Sequence record: MT446393.1
From: Escherichia virus TH16
Reading direction: 5' to 3' (one strand)
Length of the DNA: 40,612 nt
Numbering within the stretch: position 1 is the stretch's first letter; each line of letters starts with the position of its first letter. Made by a program: the position numbers and the translations under genes. The notes under the pieces were generated by a model that ran no database searches, was not told the DNA's origin, and saw only the letters and a program-made list of their open reading frames with translations. This document shows, piece after piece, positions 1 to 40,612 of the stretch.

Positions 1-668
1 AATCGCCATCGTGGAAGTCGTAGTTTTTAGACTTGACATACTTCGTGCGAATGAGACCTGAAGACGTATTGAAGTCCACTCCTTTTACCATGACCTCGCC
101 ATCAATCATCAGGCCAGTGCCTTCGTATCCAGCCTGCTTCAGGAACCACAGCCAGTCGCTAGACTCGGTCTCCCAGAGGTCCTCTCGAGAAGTGTCCAGC
201 CAGCTCAGGGCCGGAAGTGACTTAGACTCACGGCTCAACCATTGGGTCTCACCAGTAGGGAAGACCGGGAGGTTCAACCGGACACCATCGTACTTCACTT
301 CAGCTTCCAGCGACCCAGCAGCTTCCAGAGCCTTCTTAACGCCAGACTCAGAGTAATCTACAGCGCGGTGCGGGTTAGTTTTAATAGTTGTCATTGTGTT
401 ATCTCCATGTGTCGAGTTGGTTAGCGAGACAGTTAAGGAAGCCTGTGGCAGTGTTGTACAGTACGTCTTCATCGCGGTGTGCGAAGATCTTAAGCGCGAA
501 GATGTTACCAGCTCGGTCCTCGACTTGAAGTCTCATGAACTCTTTCCGAAGATGCGCCTCGTACCAGTCCTGCTGTATCACGCAGAAGTCTAACTGATAT
601 AGTCGGTTACACGCTGCTTTGAAAGCGTTTAGGTTGCCACTGTAAAGTCTGCCCATAGCGTTATGCTC
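1..668. repeat. Window-terminal direct duplication; 1..668 is identical to 39945..40612 (circular or overlapping assembly)
   Basis: Identical ORFs in the track at offset 39944 (33..356 and 39977..40300; 399..656 and 40343..40600). Confidence 0.9.
399..656 (-). CDS. gp1.2: gp1.2-like inhibitor of host dGTP triphosphohydrolase (85 aa); second copy at 40343..40600
   Basis: Translation MGRLYSGNLNAFKAA... matches the remembered T7 gp1.2 N-terminus and length; ATG start checked. Confidence 0.75.
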   Translation of the reverse strand: MGRLYSGNLNAFKAACNRLYQLDFCVIQQDWYEAHLRKEFMRLQVEDRAGNIFALKIFAHRDEDVLYNTATGFLNCLANQLDTWR

Positions 669-840
669 CTACGAAGTATTTCTCTTGGTTTACCAGCGAG
701 TCTTTTCCTTCAGCGTTACGGAAAGCACCCTTGACACCACCGCCACGCTTGGTCTTGTTCAGCTTGCGACCCTTCGGAATGTAATCTTCAGTCTGCTGAC
801 GTTCACGGATGCGCTCGAAGTTGATAGTGTTCTGATACAT
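661..840 (-). CDS. gp1.1: gp1.1-like small basic protein (59 aa from the internal ATG)
   Basis: KGRKLNKTKR motif as in remembered T7 gp1.1; track ORF 661..906 begins with TTG, so the ATG at 840 (GGAG upstream) was chosen. Confidence 0.5.
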   Translation of the reverse strand: MYQNTINFERIRERQQTEDYIPKGRKLNKTKRGGGVKGAFRNAEGKDSLVNQEKYFVGA

Positions 841-892
841 GTGGTTAAATCTCCAGTAGTTTACGTTAGGTAGTAGCTTTGCTACAGGGTTA

Positions 893-932
893 ATCATGAA
901 GGCCAAGACTTTGAGTCATGACCTTGAGTCTA
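893..932 (-). promoter_or_regulatory. Conserved hairpin-forming element, candidate RNase III processing site (R1.1-like position)
   Basis: Shares the AAGGTCA...TGGCCTT stem with elements at 9879..9926 and 33349..33398; can pair as an 11/12-bp stem. Confidence 0.35.
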
Positions 933-953
933 ATCCTATAGTGATAGTTTAGG
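931..953 (-). promoter_or_regulatory. Phage RNAP promoter (phi1.1-like); minus-strand CCTAAACTATCACTATAGGATTA
   Basis: Matches the window-wide promoter consensus; predicted TSS near 936. Confidence 0.65.
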
Positions 954-1027
954 TTAACCTCTTCTGCGTTGGATTAAAGTGAATACTGCGAGTGCTCCCA
1001 GCCACAGGGCCAGTAACTGTAGGTCTG

Positions 1028-1228
1028 TCATTTGGTTGCCGCCTCTTTAAGAGCCTGTTCGTGTGCCCGCTCCACCTGCTTAACCAACCACTTGAATGGG
1101 ACGTTAAGTTGCTTTGACATCTCGGTAGGGATGACCGTGGTCTTCACCAGACCCTTGCCGTTGTGTTCTGTTACGGTCACGATTTGAGTCCCACCCTTAA
1201 CGCCAGTCTGCTTGTGTGCAAATTTCAT
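1028..1228 (-). CDS. Hypothetical protein (66 aa) immediately downstream of the RNAP gene
   Basis: ATG start with AGGAG RBS; tightly packed after the RNAP stop. Confidence 0.5.
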   Translation of the reverse strand: MKFAHKQTGVKGGTQIVTVTEHNGKGLVKTTVIPTEMSKQLNVPFKWLVKQVERAHEQALKEAATK

Positions 1229-1242
1229 AACTCTCTCTCCTG

Positions 1243-3924
1243 TTAAGCGAATGCAAAGTCTGAAGACAAGATGTCTTCGATATTCAGTTTACCTTTCTTC
1301 GGAAGCTCAGGCAACTTGTCGCGCTGACTCTCGTGAAGCTGGTATTCGAACTGCTCGTAGAAGTCCAGCAGCACATCGTTGTCGCGGTAGGTCTCGACCA
1401 TCGTCTCACGGACTCCACGGAACAGATACTCAGCGTCAGCCGGGATGGTCCCGAAGCTATCGTGAATCACTGCGAATGACACCACGCCATACTTGCGGTG
1501 CGTGTGGACTACAGTCTTGCGGAGGTGGCTACCATCTTGTGAGTGGACGAAGTTCGGGCTAATGCCTGACTCCTGCTTGTGCTTGTCCAGCTCTTTCTTC
1601 GTGCCTTTGTTGACTGTAGGCTGAAGGTTGAATGACCCTAAGAACATCAGGTTCAAACGTGTGGTATCCTTCTTGCGGTATTCCTGCCAGACCGGGAAAC
1701 CATCAGGTGTGACCCAGTGTACCGGAAGGCAAGGCTTCAGGATTTCGCCAGTCTTCTTGTCCTTCACTTCAGCAGCCAGCAGCTTGGCAGCGCCTTGAAG
1801 CCACTTCATCGCGTCTACCGCAGCAACTACGGTCACACTCACAGCCTCCCAGATCATCTTAGCCATGAAGCGAGACGCTTGGCTTGGCTCAGTGAACATA
1901 GCGCCAGACCCTGAGTCAATCGCTGGCATCACGATGTCCTCGTAAACTTGGTCTGCGAAGCCGTACTCTTTCGACCCGTAGGCCAGAGTCATGACTGAAC
2001 GCTTAGTGACCTTGCGTGACATACCGTAGGTCAGCCACTGACGGGCCAGCTCGCGTGTCCCCAGCTTGATACGCTCGGTAATCTCACCAGTTTTCTTGTC
2101 CTCGTGAGTCACCATCTCGTTGTCCGTACCGTTAACCAGCAGGACTTTAAGCTCCTCCTCAATTCGATCAGACACGATGCGGTAGATGTCTTGAACCTTA
2201 CCGGATGGCGTTAGGTTTACTGCATGTCCACCGATGTGGTCACGAAGCATCGCGCTGAAGTGCTGAATCCCAGAGCAGGACCCATCGAACGCTATCGGCA
2301 GCGAGCAGGAGTAAGACAGGCCGTGGTGCATTACGCCAGCATACTCGAAGCAGAACGCGAGGAAGCAGAACGGAGAGTCTACCTTACCCCACCACTCAAT
2401 GCTGTCCATCGGTGCCTTAGCAGCAGCCATGATGTTAGCGTGGTTGTCTTCCACCCACTTGATGCGCTCCTCGAAGGTGACTTTATCGACACCCGCACAG
2501 TTTGCACCGTGGACCTTCAGCCATTTAAAACCATCAGCACCAATAGGCTTGCCGACTGCCAGAGTCAGGAGACCCTTCTGCATGTCGTTACCCTGAGGGT
2601 TGAACATCGGTACAGCGTAGACGCGACCCCGCCAATCCATGTTGTATGGAAACCAGATGGCCTTGAACTGAGAGAACTTGTTCGCTTGGTTGACGATAAA
2701 GCTCAGTGACAATCTGCGTGACTGTCTGGCCTTCTCGCGGCGATAGATACCAGCAGCAGCCTTCTTCCATGCCTTGAGTTCTTCTTCAGTCTCACCCGCA
2801 TAGTCCTCAGGCTTCAGTGGTTCCATCTGAGGGATGTCATCAATAGGCGTGTTGTTCAGCTTCTCGACCATGTTCACCACGTCCAGAACCTTCTTGTTAA
2901 CTTTCCAAGGTGTATTCTGGATGATGTTCACAGCGTCATAGACTTCAGGCATGTACACGTCTTCGTAACGTGCTGCCGCAGACTTGGAACCTAAGCGAAT
3001 CAGCGGCAATGGTCTGCGACCTTTGGCCCAATACCCACCTCCTACGACACCAGTCCACGGCTTAGGTGGAACTACGCAAGGTTGATAGACTGGCGCGATA
3101 CCCGCAAGGCTGAAGCCACGTTGTGCCATCTTCTTGACCCAGAATTCTGACAGGTGGACCATCTCTACATCAGCCGCTGCATTGCCAGCACCATAACGCT
3201 TAAGCTCGACCAATTGTGTTGACTGGATGACAATCTCAAGCATCTTGATGCCAACGTGTACCGCCTCGGTAGGACTCCAAGTCCCCCACGCATCTTCCAG
3301 TTGACCTTGCTCCAGCATGGAGGCCTCAACCGCTTGCATGTAGGCTTTCTTGTAGGATGCCCCGGCTCGCTTGTTCAGGTTCTCAGCTATCGCCTTTTTG
3401 AAGTGCTCCTTCTCCTGATCACGGATTCGACCGAAGCGGATTTCATCCTCAAGTGTGCGACCTATCGCGGAGGCCATCGGTGTAATCGGTATCCCTTCAG
3501 GCTTGACCAGCTTGGAGAGAATGACCTTCAGTATGATAACCGCAGCAGACTCACAGGAGATGCGCATAGAGCGGTCCTTGACGGCCTTCTCTTCAGTGCT
3601 CAACATGGTGAACGCTACGCTAGGACGAGAGGTTGACAGCTTCCCGTCTTGACCTTCATGCCACTCCTTTACGGCTTGCGCAATCTTAGGGACCAGAGTC
3701 TGCATCAAAGGTTTGGCGACCTGATTGTCTGCCAGTTCCCCGCGCTCAGTCTGTCGCTCAAGGTTCTTGATGAAACGTCGCTCGCCTTCAGTGTATGCCT
3801 CATGCTCAAGCTGAAGCTGTTTGACTGCAAGGTCCTGCCCGTAGTGGTCAGCCAGCAGGTTAAACGGCTCAATGGCGTTTGACACATCAGAGAAGTCGTG
3901 TTTGTCAATAGAGATGACGCTCAT
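1243..3924 (-). CDS. gp1: Single-subunit DNA-dependent RNA polymerase (893 aa)
   Basis: Clear similarity to T7/T3 RNAP along the whole length (e.g. FPYNMDWRGRVYAV, ESGISPNFVHSQDGSHLRKTVV, C-terminal FAFA). Confidence 0.97.
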   Translation of the reverse strand: MSVISIDKHDFSDVSNAIEPFNLLADHYGQDLAVKQLQLEHEAYTEGERRFIKNLERQTERGELADNQVAKPLMQTLVPKIAQAVKEWHEGQDGKLSTSRPSVAFTMLSTEEKAVKDRSMRISCESAAVIILKVILSKLVKPEGIPITPMASAIGRTLEDEIRFGRIRDQEKEHFKKAIAENLNKRAGASYKKAYMQAVEASMLEQGQLEDAWGTWSPTEAVHVGIKMLEIVIQSTQLVELKRYGAGNAAADVEMVHLSEFWVKKMAQRGFSLAGIAPVYQPCVVPPKPWTGVVGGGYWAKGRRPLPLIRLGSKSAAARYEDVYMPEVYDAVNIIQNTPWKVNKKVLDVVNMVEKLNNTPIDDIPQMEPLKPEDYAGETEEELKAWKKAAAGIYRREKARQSRRLSLSFIVNQANKFSQFKAIWFPYNMDWRGRVYAVPMFNPQGNDMQKGLLTLAVGKPIGADGFKWLKVHGANCAGVDKVTFEERIKWVEDNHANIMAAAKAPMDSIEWWGKVDSPFCFLAFCFEYAGVMHHGLSYSCSLPIAFDGSCSGIQHFSAMLRDHIGGHAVNLTPSGKVQDIYRIVSDRIEEELKVLLVNGTDNEMVTHEDKKTGEITERIKLGTRELARQWLTYGMSRKVTKRSVMTLAYGSKEYGFADQVYEDIVMPAIDSGSGAMFTEPSQASRFMAKMIWEAVSVTVVAAVDAMKWLQGAAKLLAAEVKDKKTGEILKPCLPVHWVTPDGFPVWQEYRKKDTTRLNLMFLGSFNLQPTVNKGTKKELDKHKQESGISPNFVHSQDGSHLRKTVVHTHRKYGVVSFAVIHDSFGTIPADAEYLFRGVRETMVETYRDNDVLLDFYEQFEYQLHESQRDKLPELPKKGKLNIEDILSSDFAFA

Positions 3925-3993
3925 ACTTAAAGTCCTTGTTATTAGTCTTTCACTTAAAGTCTCTTCGGTCTTTCACTTGGAGTCTTAGACCTT

Positions 3994-4016
3994 GAGTCCT
4001 ATAGTGATAATTAAGT
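3994..4016 (-). promoter_or_regulatory. Degenerate phage-promoter-like site upstream of the RNAP gene
   Basis: Minus-strand ACTTAATTATCACTATAGGACTC; mismatches at -14, -11 and +3 to +6. Confidence 0.35.
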
Positions 4017-4021
4017 CAGGA

Positions 4022-4282
4022 TTACTTGCATATCAGCGGGTTAGCGTGGAGATGACTGAAGCCACCGTTGGTAGTGTGCTTGATTGTTGACCGTTGGTCT
4101 ATCGCCTTCCAGCCTGAGACCAGAAGTTTACCATCATCGGTGATTGGTCGTCCACCATACGCCAGACACACCAGCTCGGACTTATGGCCCTCTGCTCTCA
4201 GGCGGCGCTGGAGGAACATATCGCGCTGTACTTGCTCCATGCGGCTACGGCTTGATGATTTATGAGTGTATACGGTTTTCAT
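4022..4282 (-). CDS. Hypothetical early protein (86 aa)
   Basis: ATG start; stop overlaps the start of the upstream gene by 1 nt (TAATG). Confidence 0.5.
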   Translation of the reverse strand: MKTVYTHKSSSRSRMEQVQRDMFLQRRLRAEGHKSELVCLAYGGRPITDDGKLLVSGWKAIDQRSTIKHTTNGGFSHLHANPLICK

Positions 4283-4479
4283 TACAGTTTGCTCCCAAGA
4301 GTTGCGATGTCCCAGACGTTCGCTAAGTTGCGCATGAATCGTCCGTTAGGTTGACGTACAGTCCAGCGACCCAGACGTACATAGTTGAATTTGTAGACTT
4401 TACACGCCTTGTTGATGTCTCTCACCAGCACGTAGGCGATAAGTACATAGCCTATGGCTATCAATAGTGCAGATATCAT
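4282..4479 (-). CDS. Hypothetical early protein with an N-terminal hydrophobic helix (65 aa)
   Basis: ATG start; MISALLIAIGYVLIAYVLV hydrophobic N-terminus. Confidence 0.5.
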   Translation of the reverse strand: MISALLIAIGYVLIAYVLVRDINKACKVYKFNYVRLGRWTVRQPNGRFMRNLANVWDIATLGSKL

Positions 4480-4565
4480 AGCGATTTCCGTTTAATACAA
4501 TCGTATATCCCATAACCTATCATCCAGATAACTGGCGCTAGGCATACCCAATATCCCACACTCAT
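4476..4565 (-). CDS. Small hydrophobic peptide ORF (29 aa), not in the ORF track
   Basis: AGGAG RBS 6 nt upstream of ATG; stop overlaps the next ATG (ATGA); MSVGYWVCLAPVIWMIGYGIYDCIKRKSL. Confidence 0.3.
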   Translation of the reverse strand: MSVGYWVCLAPVIWMIGYGIYDCIKRKSL

Positions 4566-4632
4566 AGTTAACTCCTATTAATGCAAGTGGTAATCTTCGA
4601 GGCCACCTATCAGTTAGATGACCTCTCGTCTA

Positions 4633-4782
4633 TCACTCAGCGTGTAAGCTGTCGTGAATACGTTTGCGGCTACCGTAGACCACTTTCAATAGACGCATAG
4701 CCGCATCGTGGTTTAACCGCCCGGTCTTGACCAAAATCCGGGCGTTGGTGACGTGGTGCTGGCAGAGACCATAAGTTACCAT
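4633..4782 (-). CDS. Hypothetical early protein (49 aa from the internal ATG)
   Basis: Track ORF 4633..4827 begins with TTG; ATG at 4782 has a GAGG-type RBS. Confidence 0.4.
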   Translation of the reverse strand: MVTYGLCQHHVTNARILVKTGRLNHDAAMRLLKVVYGSRKRIHDSLHAE

Positions 4783-5300
4783 CTTGATGGCCTCACCTCT
4801 TGCAGCTTGGACACAAGGAAGAAGCAATCCACCAGTATCAACTTGCCATTCACGGCCCGTACATTGCGTGGGCTTATCTCAAACTGAATGTCAGACCCAA
4901 AGTTAGCGCAAGCATCCAGCGCCATCAGTACATCCATCAGACCTTCCCGCACAGTCTCAGTCTCAGACCTGTCGTGTGCAGCTTGGAATATCTCGTACCA
5001 CTTGTGATACAGGTCAGCAGGTCGAGAGAATCTCGGAGACCGTGAGAAGCAATCGCGCAGCACCTGATAGAGTTGCCACTGGTCATCATCTAAATGCGCC
5101 TTGAGTCCTCGTGTTGGTGGCATGTGGTCCATCTCATACGTGCCAACCTCAATCATCTTGACTTCAGGGAACAGTGGAGACTCAGGGAACCATCCCCATG
5201 CCATACACTCCTTTATTGGGTCAGAAGAGACCAGAAGTACACGCTTCCCGCAATCCTTCAGGTAGCACTTAGTGAACGCGCCTTTGCCTATCAGTTTCAT
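4776..5300 (-). CDS. gp0.7: gp0.7-like protein kinase, short form (174 aa) without the long C-terminal region of T7 gp0.7
   Basis: GKGAF glycine-rich segment and weak similarity to the remembered T7 gp0.7 kinase region; position before gene 1. Confidence 0.45.
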   Translation of the reverse strand: MKLIGKGAFTKCYLKDCGKRVLLVSSDPIKECMAWGWFPESPLFPEVKMIEVGTYEMDHMPPTRGLKAHLDDDQWQLYQVLRDCFSRSPRFSRPADLYHKWYEIFQAAHDRSETETVREGLMDVLMALDACANFGSDIQFEISPRNVRAVNGKLILVDCFFLVSKLQEVRPSRW

Positions 5301-5316
5301 GTTGTTATTCCTTGCG

Positions 5317-5505
5317 TTAGAATGGATTAGACCATGTGCTGTACTGGTGGTTGGAAATCATGCCAGACTTGCAGAGACTGTCTGTATAGTCATTCCAATA
5401 CTGCTGTTTAGCTATGTCGTCGCCTCTGAAAGTCTCAGGGAACTCGCGGAAAGTCTCACGACATTCAGCTATCACTTCCGCTTTGGTCATCTTACGATAC
5501 GCCAT
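5317..5505 (-). CDS. Hypothetical early protein (62 aa), second gene of the early operon
   Basis: ATG start with AGGA upstream; preceded by the conserved leader element. Confidence 0.5.
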   Translation of the reverse strand: MAYRKMTKAEVIAECRETFREFPETFRGDDIAKQQYWNDYTDSLCKSGMISNHQYSTWSNPF

Positions 5506-5513
5506 CTTGTTTA

Positions 5514-5573
5514 TCCTATAGTTAGTGACTATCAGTCAGGCCGCTATGAGTCTAACGACCTGTAGTTAATCAC
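5514..5573. repeat. Copy 1 of a ~60-bp duplicated early leader element (contains TGACT-ATC-AGTCA inverted repeat)
   Basis: 21 bp identical to 5764..5784 plus flanking similarity to 5755..5822. Confidence 0.6.
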
Positions 5574-5746
5574 TGGCAATTGAACGCGTGGTCCAGGCAC
5601 ATATTGAACTCTTCCTGCGCAAGCTCGCGGCTATCCCACTCAGTCTTAGACAATCCGTAGATTATCACATGCTTAGTGTGATTCTTACAGTCTTTAGCCG
5701 TATACCAGATTAAGCCAAGATCTTCGTTCATCGCTATGATTTTCAT
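5570..5746 (-). CDS. Hypothetical first early protein (58 aa) in the position of T7 gene 0.3; not in the ORF track
   Basis: ATG with AGGAG RBS; translation MKIIAMNEDLGLIWYTAKDCKNHTKHVIIYGLSKTEWDSRELAQEEFNMCLDHAFNCQ. Confidence 0.5.
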   Translation of the reverse strand: MKIIAMNEDLGLIWYTAKDCKNHTKHVIIYGLSKTEWDSRELAQEEFNMCLDHAFNCQ

Positions 5747-5754
5747 AATGTTAC

Positions 5755-5822
5755 TCCTACTTAAGTTAGTGACTATCAGTCAGGGCCTTCAGATGTAGAC
5801 TCAAAGACCCTGTAGTTAGTCG
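5755..5822. repeat. Copy 2 of the duplicated early leader element
   Basis: See 5514..5573. Confidence 0.6.
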
Positions 5823-5929
5823 CTATCGGCGCACATTAAGAGTTTATCCAGATTGTTAAAGAGCATTCCCTTCAGTCATATGACTTCAGGTAGACCATTT
5901 CAGTGTCGGTCATCACCGTTGTTTCGATG

Positions 5930-5966
5930 TGGTACATACTACTTTAAGTCGTTACTGCTTGTCAAC
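5930..5966 (-). promoter_or_regulatory. Host sigma70-type early promoter (T7 A3-like)
   Basis: Minus-strand TTGACA, 18-nt spacer, TAGTAT; flanks resemble the remembered T7 A2/A3 region. Confidence 0.5.
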
Positions 5967-6064
5967 CACTTTCTGTCATCTGCCTGTTGTTCGTATGACT
6001 TATCAGGCTGTCTACTTGACCGGGATGACCCGGCGTCTTCACTATCCGGTTGTTGCCGTGTCGT

Positions 6065-6107
6065 GTTGACGGAAGTTATTTAGCCATAGTCTAGACCTAT
6101 AGTCAAT
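6065..6107 (-). promoter_or_regulatory. Candidate host sigma70 promoter (T7 A1-like)
   Basis: Minus-strand TTGACT, 17-nt spacer, CTAAAT. Confidence 0.3.
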
Positions 6108-6329
6108 AGGTAATTTGAAATAATATTGATTAAGCTATCGTCGGCCCCATAGTGACTAAGAGGATATAGTCTTTGACTAACATGTATTAGACCTTAAGTC
6201 TATATCTTTGTGTCTATTAACTGTAGGTCTGTGACTGTAAGCTGTGAGTGTCTTATGGTTGTGACTGTAGGTTAGTGAGACTGTAGGTGTATGACGTAAT
6301 GTTATACTATAACACTATACAGATAGAGA

Positions 6330-6502
6330 CTCAGAGACAGACCCATAGTCCCAACCTATCGTCCAACCTCCAGCCATAGCCACTACCTATCGTCGACCTA
6401 ACGTCTTGACCATCGGTCCAACCCTATGATAGACTGGGGTAGGGCCTTTGGTCTGACTTAAAGAGGGCCTATGGGGAGACTTTAGGTTCTTGAACTGTGA
6501 GA
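6330..6502. repeat. Collapsed terminal-repeat region; physical genome left end near 6502 on the minus strand
   Basis: Minus strand from 6502 reads TCTCACAGTTCAAGAACCTAAAGTCTCCCCATAGG..., resembling remembered T7/T3 left ends; repeat extent is an estimate. Confidence 0.45.
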
Positions 6503-6739
6503 TGTGGTCTCAAACTTTTGGTCCAAAACTCATCGTCACTACTGTAGGCCTAAGCCACTGTAGGTCAAGGACCGTAGGTCAGGCGACACTAGGATAGACC
6601 AATAAGTAGGATGACCCTAAGTGAGCTTCTATTAAGGTGTTACCTAAAGTCCTTGACTACAGTAGCTAAGGTCAGTAGAGTAGCGTCAGCTATGAACTGA
6701 CCTTAGGTCTTACGCTCATGAATAGTTACCATGATTGCG

Positions 6740-6898
6740 TTAATTACACTGAGAGACCAGAGAACATACGAGAGTCTCGACCCACCCGACCCACTGACTT
6801 CCAGCAGTAACGCCAGCAGCAAGTAGAACAGCAGCAAGAAACCTGTATGTAGCTCGATTGGTCGCCAGAGCTTTAAGTACAGCTTTGGTCTTTGCCAT
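6740..6898 (-). CDS. gp19.5: gp19.5-like small hydrophobic protein (52 aa), not in the ORF track
   Basis: AGGAGG RBS; position after terminase; translation MAKTKAVLKALATNRATYRFLAAVLLAAGVTAGSQWVGWVETLVCSLVSQCN. Confidence 0.45.
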   Translation of the reverse strand: MAKTKAVLKALATNRATYRFLAAVLLAAGVTAGSQWVGWVETLVCSLVSQCN

Positions 6899-7078
6899 AT
6901 GCTACATACCTCCTGTATCTATGGTCGGTGACTATCTGTATTGGAGGGATTATGATTAATATCACCCTCCTTCCATCGGTGCAAGCCTTAGGTAAGAACT
7001 CGGAGTCTGCCTCCTAAGGTCTTGCATAAAGTCTGCATATGTATATTCACTACAGTAATACTATAAGTAACCGGGGGT

Positions 7079-39377: not shown

Positions 39378-40338
39378 CTGGTGTCTCCTCCATGTAGGTG
39401 ATTTGACAAGCCCACCCATTGTAGTAATCAGGGTCTGACTTAACGTTATCTGTGAACTCGGACATAAGGGCGCGACTAATGTTAGTTGCGGAGACCTCCA
39501 TCCCGTTCTCAAGCATCACGTCAAATCCGATGACCATGCCCTCGTTGGCTAGGCCATCCGTACCCCACACAGGGCGCACAACATGACCGTCTGCCTCTTC
39601 GCTCGGCTTCATCTTCCACATGCCAGACTTCTTGCCACGCTTCCAGCGTCCAAGAGGGTCTTTAACTACCAGACCTTCTTGCCCATCTGCGCGCTTCTCT
39701 TCGTACAAATCCTGAAGAGACTCAAGGTCGTACACTGTATGACTCTCAGATAATACCCAGTCGATTTCCGGGAAGTATTTCTGGAGGAGAGGGACGATAG
39801 CTTCGGCCTTCAGGCGAGTGACGCTATGGATAGGGCCTTCGGCTTTCGGGTCGGTGATGACGTTAAGGTCCACGATACCGTAGACGACCACCTTGATATG
39901 GGCTCGGTCCAGCCTGAACTGAGTAGTCTTGGACTTGAGGTCCCAATCGCCATCGTGGAAGTCGTAGTTTTTAGACTTGACATACTTCGTGCGAATGAGA
40001 CCTGAAGACGTATTGAAGTCCACTCCTTTTACCATGACCTCGCCATCAATCATCAGGCCAGTGCCTTCGTATCCAGCCTGCTTCAGGAACCACAGCCAGT
40101 CGCTAGACTCGGTCTCCCAGAGGTCCTCTCGAGAAGTGTCCAGCCAGCTCAGGGCCGGAAGTGACTTAGACTCACGGCTCAACCATTGGGTCTCACCAGT
40201 AGGGAAGACCGGGAGGTTCAACCGGACACCATCGTACTTCACTTCAGCTTCCAGCGACCCAGCAGCTTCCAGAGCCTTCTTAACGCCAGACTCAGAGTAA
40301 TCTACAGCGCGGTGCGGGTTAGTTTTAATAGTTGTCAT
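39307..40338 (-). CDS. gp1.3: ATP-dependent DNA ligase (343 aa from the ATG); its 5' part is duplicated at 1..394
   Basis: KYDGVR adenylation motif and strong similarity to T7 ligase (MKPSEEADG, DGSLRHPSF..RGTEDNP); GGAG RBS before the ATG at 40338. Confidence 0.95.
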   Translation of the reverse strand: MTTIKTNPHRAVDYSESGVKKALEAAGSLEAEVKYDGVRLNLPVFPTGETQWLSRESKSLPALSWLDTSREDLWETESSDWLWFLKQAGYEGTGLMIDGEVMVKGVDFNTSSGLIRTKYVKSKNYDFHDGDWDLKSKTTQFRLDRAHIKVVVYGIVDLNVITDPKAEGPIHSVTRLKAEAIVPLLQKYFPEIDWVLSESHTVYDLESLQDLYEEKRADGQEGLVVKDPLGRWKRGKKSGMWKMKPSEEADGHVVRPVWGTDGLANEGMVIGFDVMLENGMEVSATNISRALMSEFTDNVKSDPDYYNGWACQITYMEETPDGSLRHPSFYQWRGTEDNPTVKI

Positions 40339-40612
40339 TGTGTTATCTCCATGTGTCGAGTTGGTTAGCGAGACAGTTAAGGAAGCCTGTGGCAGTGTTG
40401 TACAGTACGTCTTCATCGCGGTGTGCGAAGATCTTAAGCGCGAAGATGTTACCAGCTCGGTCCTCGACTTGAAGTCTCATGAACTCTTTCCGAAGATGCG
40501 CCTCGTACCAGTCCTGCTGTATCACGCAGAAGTCTAACTGATATAGTCGGTTACACGCTGCTTTGAAAGCGTTTAGGTTGCCACTGTAAAGTCTGCCCAT
40601 AGCGTTATGCTC

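Follow-up and report, generated by a model that had tools for sequence, protein, structure and literature searches.

The RNase III sites of bacteriophage T7 are textbook material. In T7, host RNA polymerase yields an early precursor of about 7 kb which RNase III cuts at five sites, and at one of them, R1.1, a single bond is cut (PMC4858673). Internal loops confine cleavage by RNase III to one strand, leaving a protective 3' hairpin (PMC1540722). In phage T3, an R0.3 site is located between promoter A3 and gene 0.3 (PMC3276506). A search of the literature for RNase III together with Kayfunavirus or K1F returned nothing relevant (the K1F genome paper lay outside this search), and no RNase III site was annotated in the deposited records examined. 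The elements described in this work are of a well-understood kind which had gone unannotated in this K1F-like phage.

The window (the whole stretch of DNA that was analysed, 40,612 nucleotides) represents a K1F-like (Kayfunavirus) relative of T7 with coding on the minus strand. When positions 5200-6400 were used as BLAST query against deposited phages, K1F-like phages (genus Kayfunavirus, subfamily Studiervirinae) were matched with 83-91% identity among the 20 best-covered records, and matches in these K1F-like records began about 105 bases in from the left genome end. The 668 bases at the start of the window (1-668) equal the 668 at its end (39945-40612); the window is thus a 39,944-bp genome closed on itself and wrapped past its own start, and features within these two stretches would count twice. 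Counted from the inferred left end, the region studied here is about 700-1000 bases in, and so at the beginning of the early region. Several families of short repeats (ACTGTAGGTC, CCATAGTC and CCTATCGTC) are clustered at 6220-6580 (minus/plus), near the inferred genome end, and this cluster probably lies in or beside the terminal repeat or a concatemer junction.

The gene for the T7-type RNA polymerase is an ORF of 893 aa (3924-1243, minus strand). The first two ORFs past the host-type promoter region are early gene A (58 aa, MKIIAMNE..., 5746-5570, minus; phrog_20418, E 3.7e-30), which is bracketed by the repeat copies A and B and is present in some relatives and missing from others, and early gene B (62 aa, MAYRKMTK..., 5505-5317, minus; phrog_336, E 6e-19), which follows copy B. 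Pfam gave no match for six early proteins, and the PHROGs hits of the early proteins were to families of unknown function only.

A sequence-only reading of 5514-5822 had described a duplicated leader element with a TGACT-N3-AGTCA inverted repeat before the first two early genes, and had proposed that it is either an RNase III processing site like those in T7 early mRNA or a protein operator. Its description of the repeat was confirmed: positions 5520-5540 and 5764-5784 carry the 21-bp block AGTTAGTGACTATCAGTCAGG with 100% identity, and with up to three mismatches allowed just these two matches were found in the window (0.00 expected from 100 shuffles). Similarity does extend into the flanks as it had stated, with 49 identical positions among the 57 nt of copy B in a gapped alignment of 5825-5762 with 5574-5518 (minus), and each copy is indeed placed as a leader, the element ending 13-16 nt ahead of the ATG of gene A and gene B, respectively. 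Its delimitation of the element was only partly borne out. The repeat stands, but the predicted functional unit is a hairpin of 57-64 nt and not the 21-mer or the small palindrome; the end coordinate 5822 falls slightly short, with the 5' arm of copy A (5817-5825) running just beyond it; and the two copies are joined by four further elements of the same kind elsewhere in the window.

Folding of the minus-strand transcript, which had been suggested as a check, gave the same arrangement for both copies, i.e., a lower stem, a 4x5 internal loop and an upper stem. Copy A, the predicted first early processing hairpin, extends over 5825-5762 (minus). Its lower stem pairs 5825-5817 with 5775-5767 (nine positions including one C·A mismatch), its internal loop opposes 5816-5813 (ACUA) and 5780-5776 (ACUGA), and its 10-bp upper stem, formed by 5812-5803 and 5790-5781, is capped by an apical loop at 5802-5791. 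Pair probabilities in copy A were mostly 0.82-1.0, with values of about 0.5 for the two pairs beside the apical loop. Copy B, the predicted second early processing hairpin (5574-5518, minus), consists of an 8-bp lower stem (5574-5567 with 5531-5524) that contains the TGA stop codon (5572-5570) of the upstream gene, an internal loop of 5566-5563 (ACUA) versus 5536-5532 (ACUGA), and a 10-bp upper stem (5562-5553 with 5546-5537) with an apical loop at 5552-5547, at pair probabilities of 0.83-1.0. In the upper stem the copies differ in sequence and yet both pair, and where copy A has its C·A mismatch in the lower stem, copy B has a U-A pair. Both predicted folds contain two stacked stems of about two helical turns with an asymmetric loop. 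The minimum free energy of copy A was -22.9 kcal/mol in the minus sense versus -19.5 in the plus sense, and that of copy B was -22.9 versus -11.3; the fold z-scores of the two copies ranged from -2.0 to -3.1 (copy B, -3.1), which is moderate for single sequences.

In these predicted structures the 21-nt block is the common 3' half of two RNA hairpins of about 60 nt. As RNA it reads CCUGACUGAUAGUCACUAACU in copy A (5764-5784, minus) and takes the same role in copy B (5520-5540, minus); starting with the four final pairs in the upper stem, it runs on through the 3' side of the internal loop, where the cut is predicted, and through the lower stem's 3' strand, and ends 3 nt past it.

Covariance models were used to compare the hairpins with those of T7. 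Model R1, which was built from the five early RNase III sites of T7 alone, gave six matches in the window. Each lies on the coding (minus) strand, and their E values range from 2e-10 to 2e-5; the next match had an E value of 0.85. Copy B scored 42.7 bits (E 1.4e-8) and copy A, matched over 5824-5762, 34.3 bits (E 2.7e-6). Model R2, derived from 60 Kayfunavirus matches (window plus 20 related loci), returned the same six sites with 44-71 bits, among them copy B with 70.7 bits and copy A with 64 bits; its next match reached 11.6 bits. When applied to bases 1-7000 of T7, model R2 detected the five known sites only (R0.5, 55 bits; R0.3, 47.5; R1.1, 45.4; R1, 26.2; R1.3, 15.2) above noise of at most 7.3 bits. 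Similarity to the experimentally defined T7 sites was thus seen in the search with model R1 as well as in the reverse one. In an alignment of T7 intergenic sequences, AGG...CCT at the base of the upper stem was invariant across the T7 sites and both copies, and the proximal four pairs (CAGG/CCUG) of copies A and B are identical to those of T7 R1, which is cleaved. A search of the window against Rfam at gathering thresholds gave no match.

Conservation of the pairing was assessed in an alignment of 55 distinct sites (A3), which was fitted to the model so that its pair counts are inflated: 95.3% of the cells were paired versus 26-52% with the partners slid, 10 of the 18 base pairs showed compensatory double changes, and the observed covariation score was attained by none of 500 shuffles. 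As an unbiased control on fewer sequences, 14 diverse sites were aligned with MAFFT and folded with RNAalifold, which recovered the same structure de novo, again with compensatory changes in 10 of 18 pairs. G-U pairs are abundant in the hairpin sites, and the minus-sense RNA was stabler than the plus sense at five of the six window sites; both findings point to coding-sense RNA rather than a DNA site. Structure, covariation, reciprocal models and position together lend strong support to the first of the two earlier proposals, a predicted RNase III site like those of T7 early mRNA.

We put the probability that copies A and B serve a K1F-like phage as signals for RNase III processing of its early polycistronic mRNA at roughly 85%. 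Host RNA polymerase would start at sigma-70-type promoters near 6100-5930 (minus) and move leftward via the small early genes toward the RNA polymerase gene. In the early RNA, each element would form a hairpin of about 60 nt with 8-10-bp stems stacked around the asymmetric ACUA/ACUGA loop, and host RNase III would bind the quasi-continuous helix of about 20 bp, as it does at T7 R0.3, R0.5, R1, R1.1 and R1.3. The loop would limit the cut to the 3' strand, three nucleotides beyond the upper stem; the predicted cuts (ACU^GA) fall between 5778 and 5777 in copy A and between 5534 and 5533 in copy B (U/G in both). The upstream product would retain the hairpin as a protective 3' end, and the downstream mRNA would begin with GAUAGUCACUAAC..., 13-31 nt before its ribosome-binding site and ATG. 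Cleavage by RNase III and the exact bond are what we infer here. The T7 cleavage coordinates 890, 1468, 3138, 5887 and 6448, reportedly those of Dunn and Studier (1983), agree on one structural position in all five sequences, each cut following the third nucleotide past the upper stem on its 3' side; the cuts predicted for the window apply this rule. The gene 0.7 kinase is not listed in the K1F annotation; K1F-like phages appear to be without it, and T7-style stimulation of RNase III may therefore be absent.

The position of the hairpins also corresponds to that of the T7 sites. A sigma-70-type promoter-like site (TTGACA-18-TAGTAT, 5965-5936, minus; 10/12, by consensus match only) is located on the strand of copy A, some 110 nt ahead of it, and is the probable source of the early transcript. 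A boxA-like motif, GCTCTTTAACAA (5853-5864, minus), is found 27 nt upstream of copy A. The identical motif occurs in T7 (813-824), 28 nt upstream of the R0.3 hairpin, and in every K1F-like locus searched save the truncated L019. Given this shared spacing, copy A corresponds in position to T7 R0.3, and the order known from R0.3 (host promoters, boxA-like motif, hairpin, first gene) was found at copy A too; copy B is similar to T7 R0.5. The sequence GCTCTTTAACAA matches the boxA antitermination motif of rRNA operons, and its arrangement ahead of an RNase III hairpin resembles the rrn leader, where an RNase III stem comes after boxA.

All six sites are on the minus strand in intergenic gaps just ahead of gene starts, along an inferred transcript. 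Apart from copies A and B, these are the following: (i) a third early hairpin (4637-4580, minus; model R1 31 bits, E 2e-5; model R2 60.2 bits) before a small gene with its ATG near 4564; (ii) an equivalent of T7 R1.1 (937-880, minus; model R1 36 bits, model R2 44.1 bits), which lies right after a phage-promoter match (950-933), past the RNA polymerase gene and ahead of a gene 1.1-like ORF, so that it comes after a phi1.1-like promoter as R1.1 comes after the phi1.1A promoter in T7; (iii) a hairpin of the same family (33390-33335, minus; model R1 49.4 bits, E 2.3e-10; model R2 52.6 bits) immediately before an ORF starting MFDLNSIWGSDIETNGL, the putative DNA polymerase gene by analogy with T7 gp5; and (iv) another hairpin of this family, a probable counterpart of T7 R18.5 (9921-9864, minus; model R1 44.8 bits, model R2 58 bits), before an ORF starting MLELL..., which presumably resembles T7 gp18.5 (MLEFL...).

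Upstream of the RNA polymerase gene (4020-3925), neither model matched an equivalent of R1, though ACTCAAGGTC is present. In this region a promoter-like sequence, TAATTATCACTATAGGAC (3996-4013, minus), with three mismatches to the phage consensus is located about 70 nt before the ATG (3924) of the RNA polymerase gene; after it comes ACTCAAGGTC, similar to the beginning of an RNase III site and scored by neither model. A further copy of the repeat, ACAGATAGTCACCGACCATAG at 6919-6939 (minus), lies upstream of ORF 6898-6740 and shares 81% identity with the hairpins' 3' strand plus flank. It was rejected as a site (fold z -0.6, no match to model R1 or model R2). It sits past a phage promoter (7098-7081) and a GGAGGG/CCCTCC stem, is without a convincing complementary 5' arm, and may be a relic half-site.

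Among the alternatives, the one that survives best is that the hairpins are mRNA structures which RNase III does not cleave, acting as barriers to 3' exonucleases, as translational regulators that control the ribosome-binding site, or as sites that are bound and left uncut. We consider this unlikely. Folding of copy A in its 131-nt context predicted pairing of the Shine-Dalgarno sequence GGAG to GUGCGCC, which lies upstream of the hairpin, at probabilities of 0.47-0.87; however, such pairing cannot be conserved because the leader after the hairpin varies by cassette (see below). Some motifs permit binding of RNase III yet block cleavage (PMC1540722), and hosts without RNase III support growth of T7 (PMC6938266). 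Against this, the close match to the cleaved T7 sites in loop size, proximal stem and position argues for the same mechanism, that is, for processing by RNase III at copies A and B.

The second earlier proposal, in which TGACT-N3-AGTCA is a DNA operator through which a dimeric protein, of the host or the phage, controls the first two early genes, is very improbable. The 13-bp palindrome is perfect, and TGACTNNNAGTCA was found at two places only, 5526-5538 and 5770-5782, versus 0.06 expected. It sits, however, within the larger element whose conservation follows RNA pairing, as evident from the compensatory changes and the minus-specific G-U pairs; none of the four other window sites or the five T7 sites contains it; and it is not placed at a promoter, since the nearest promoter-like site is some 110 nt upstream of copy A and copy B lies within the transcription unit with no promoter match nearby. 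Nor does the palindrome form the structural core that the sequence-only reading had made of it, its pairing probability in the predicted RNA ensemble being 0.0003 at most. It owes its existence to a likeness between ACUGA, on the 3' side of the internal loop, and the lower stem's 5' strand GACUA, and in the predicted fold of the processing hairpin it is incidental.

A duplication or recombination scar, a degenerate phage-polymerase promoter or a terminator, each without processing function, is scarcely credible as an explanation of the repeat: recombination breakpoints do fall at the hairpin edges, there is a loose resemblance of the 3' flank TCACTAACTATAGGA to the core TCACTATAGGGA of the phage promoter, and the homologous hairpin is labelled 'terminator' in one public record, but a neutral scar would neither retain 95% pairing and compensatory changes across 55 distinct sites nor match the T7 sites. 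Nine matches to the phage promoter consensus of the genome itself, TAACTATCACTATAGGGA, were found (up to three mismatches, all on the minus strand), and neither copy was included. Intrinsic terminators, i.e., a stem followed by a T run, were not found in 5400-6600, the hairpins being followed by CACUAACU without a U run.

RNase III does not require the 21-nt identity of the two copies, because the other four sites differ in that stretch. The early regions of 20 K1F-like genomes were compared. The first hairpin was always of type 1 (copy A-like) and was followed by zero, one or two hairpins of type 2 (copy B-like). For the 31 type-1 and type-2 sites in these 20 genomes, the median pairwise identity was 0.95 in the 21-nt block and 0.33 in the next 40 nt; these 40 nt fall into seven to eight unrelated classes and start different small genes. 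One cassette may follow a type-1 or a type-2 hairpin, as gene B does in relatives. Phage Penshu1 carries a single hairpin and no gene A; in GA2A, two hairpins and gene A are present and gene B is missing. In pairwise comparisons with relatives, homology breakpoints were found at 5760-5765, 5574 and 5520-5521, and conservation of type 2 starts exactly at AGTGA, regardless of the upstream gene. On these sequence comparisons, the hairpins are conserved islands whose edges coincide with the swap points of small early genes, and what had been taken for a duplication in the window is a hairpin-bounded gene cassette. The small genes that follow the third early hairpin (4580-4637) in relatives vary as well (their products begin MSVGYW, MNIGYW, MKFTII, MWTIAL and MNTAII), and the boundary pattern accordingly extends beyond the first two sites.

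Length variants of the type-1 hairpin were observed in several loci. A long form with about 23 extra apical nucleotides is present at L006:836-921, L009:717-802, L019:822-907 and L023:625-710, and a short form with a loop shorter by 5 nt at L003:692-749 and L018:879-936; stems and internal loop are unaltered in these variants. One site, L013:4842-4904, is a chimaera of type 1 and type 2. This hairpin, the first in its locus, combines the 5' lower-stem strand of type 2 (AGTGATTA) with the upper stem of type 1, a structure which is the expected product of a crossover within the hairpin.

The 21-nt identity is probably explained by recombination within the hairpin, at the junctions where cassettes are exchanged. 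We give even odds to the wider proposal that the hairpins serve a double purpose, as signals for mRNA processing and, through their 21-nt half, as preferred point of homologous crossover between co-infecting K1F-like phages. If this were true, the early region would be a plug-in array of small genes, possibly for host takeover or anti-defence, in which each gene brings its own leader and the junction supplies the processing site together with a defined mRNA 5' end. The order of hairpin, gene A, hairpin and gene B would then be one product of such an insertion.

New in this work are the predicted T7-type sites in the Kayfunavirus lineage and the cassette-junction pattern; knowledge of RNase III and of T7 biology is unchanged. 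The type-2 hairpin alone is present in at least 116 deposited genomes. In record MZ726794.1, a homologous type-2 hairpin (1048-1101) is annotated as 'terminator'; in most other listed records nothing is annotated at this hairpin, and several have a hypothetical protein over it. With respect to annotation, the phage and its relatives gain six defined, putative RNA-processing signals and predicted 5' ends of early mRNAs. For the engineering of K1F-type phages, which find use against E. coli K1, the hairpins indicate natural points at which insertion of small genes is tolerated. With regard to evolution, the coincidence of hairpin edges and gene-swap boundaries offers a clean, testable case of a regulatory RNA that is also a recombination junction.

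T4-type phages reportedly possess promoter-stem-loop cassettes, the PeSLs that Arbiol, Comeau and Krisch are said to have described in 2010. The PeSLs and the window have in common that small, variable early genes are flanked by short and conserved regulatory hairpins, which delimit the modules that are shuffled. The PeSLs, however, are early promoters with stem-loops at the DNA level in unrelated phages, whereas the unit in the window is a predicted RNA-processing hairpin; the resemblance is one of genome dynamics only, and the window elements are not put forward as members of that group. In T3-like phages, candidate relatives of the type-2 hairpin are sequence matches of 88.7% identity, found around 1.6-1.8 kb in Yersinia phage AP10, Citrobacter phage phiCFP-1 and two Klebsiella phages. 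The early sites of T7 share with those of the window the lower stem of about 8 bp, the 4x5-nt loop and the 10-bp upper stem, as well as the strand, the intergenic placement before early genes and the boxA-like motif before the first site. Differences concern the loop sequence (ACUA/ACUGA in the window versus ACUC/UAUGA in T7), the genes served (different small ORFs versus 0.3 and 0.7) and the polymerase gene, which in T7 directly follows R1, whereas the window is without a convincing site there. Finally, unlike T7, the window has two sites with an identical 21-nt 3' half.
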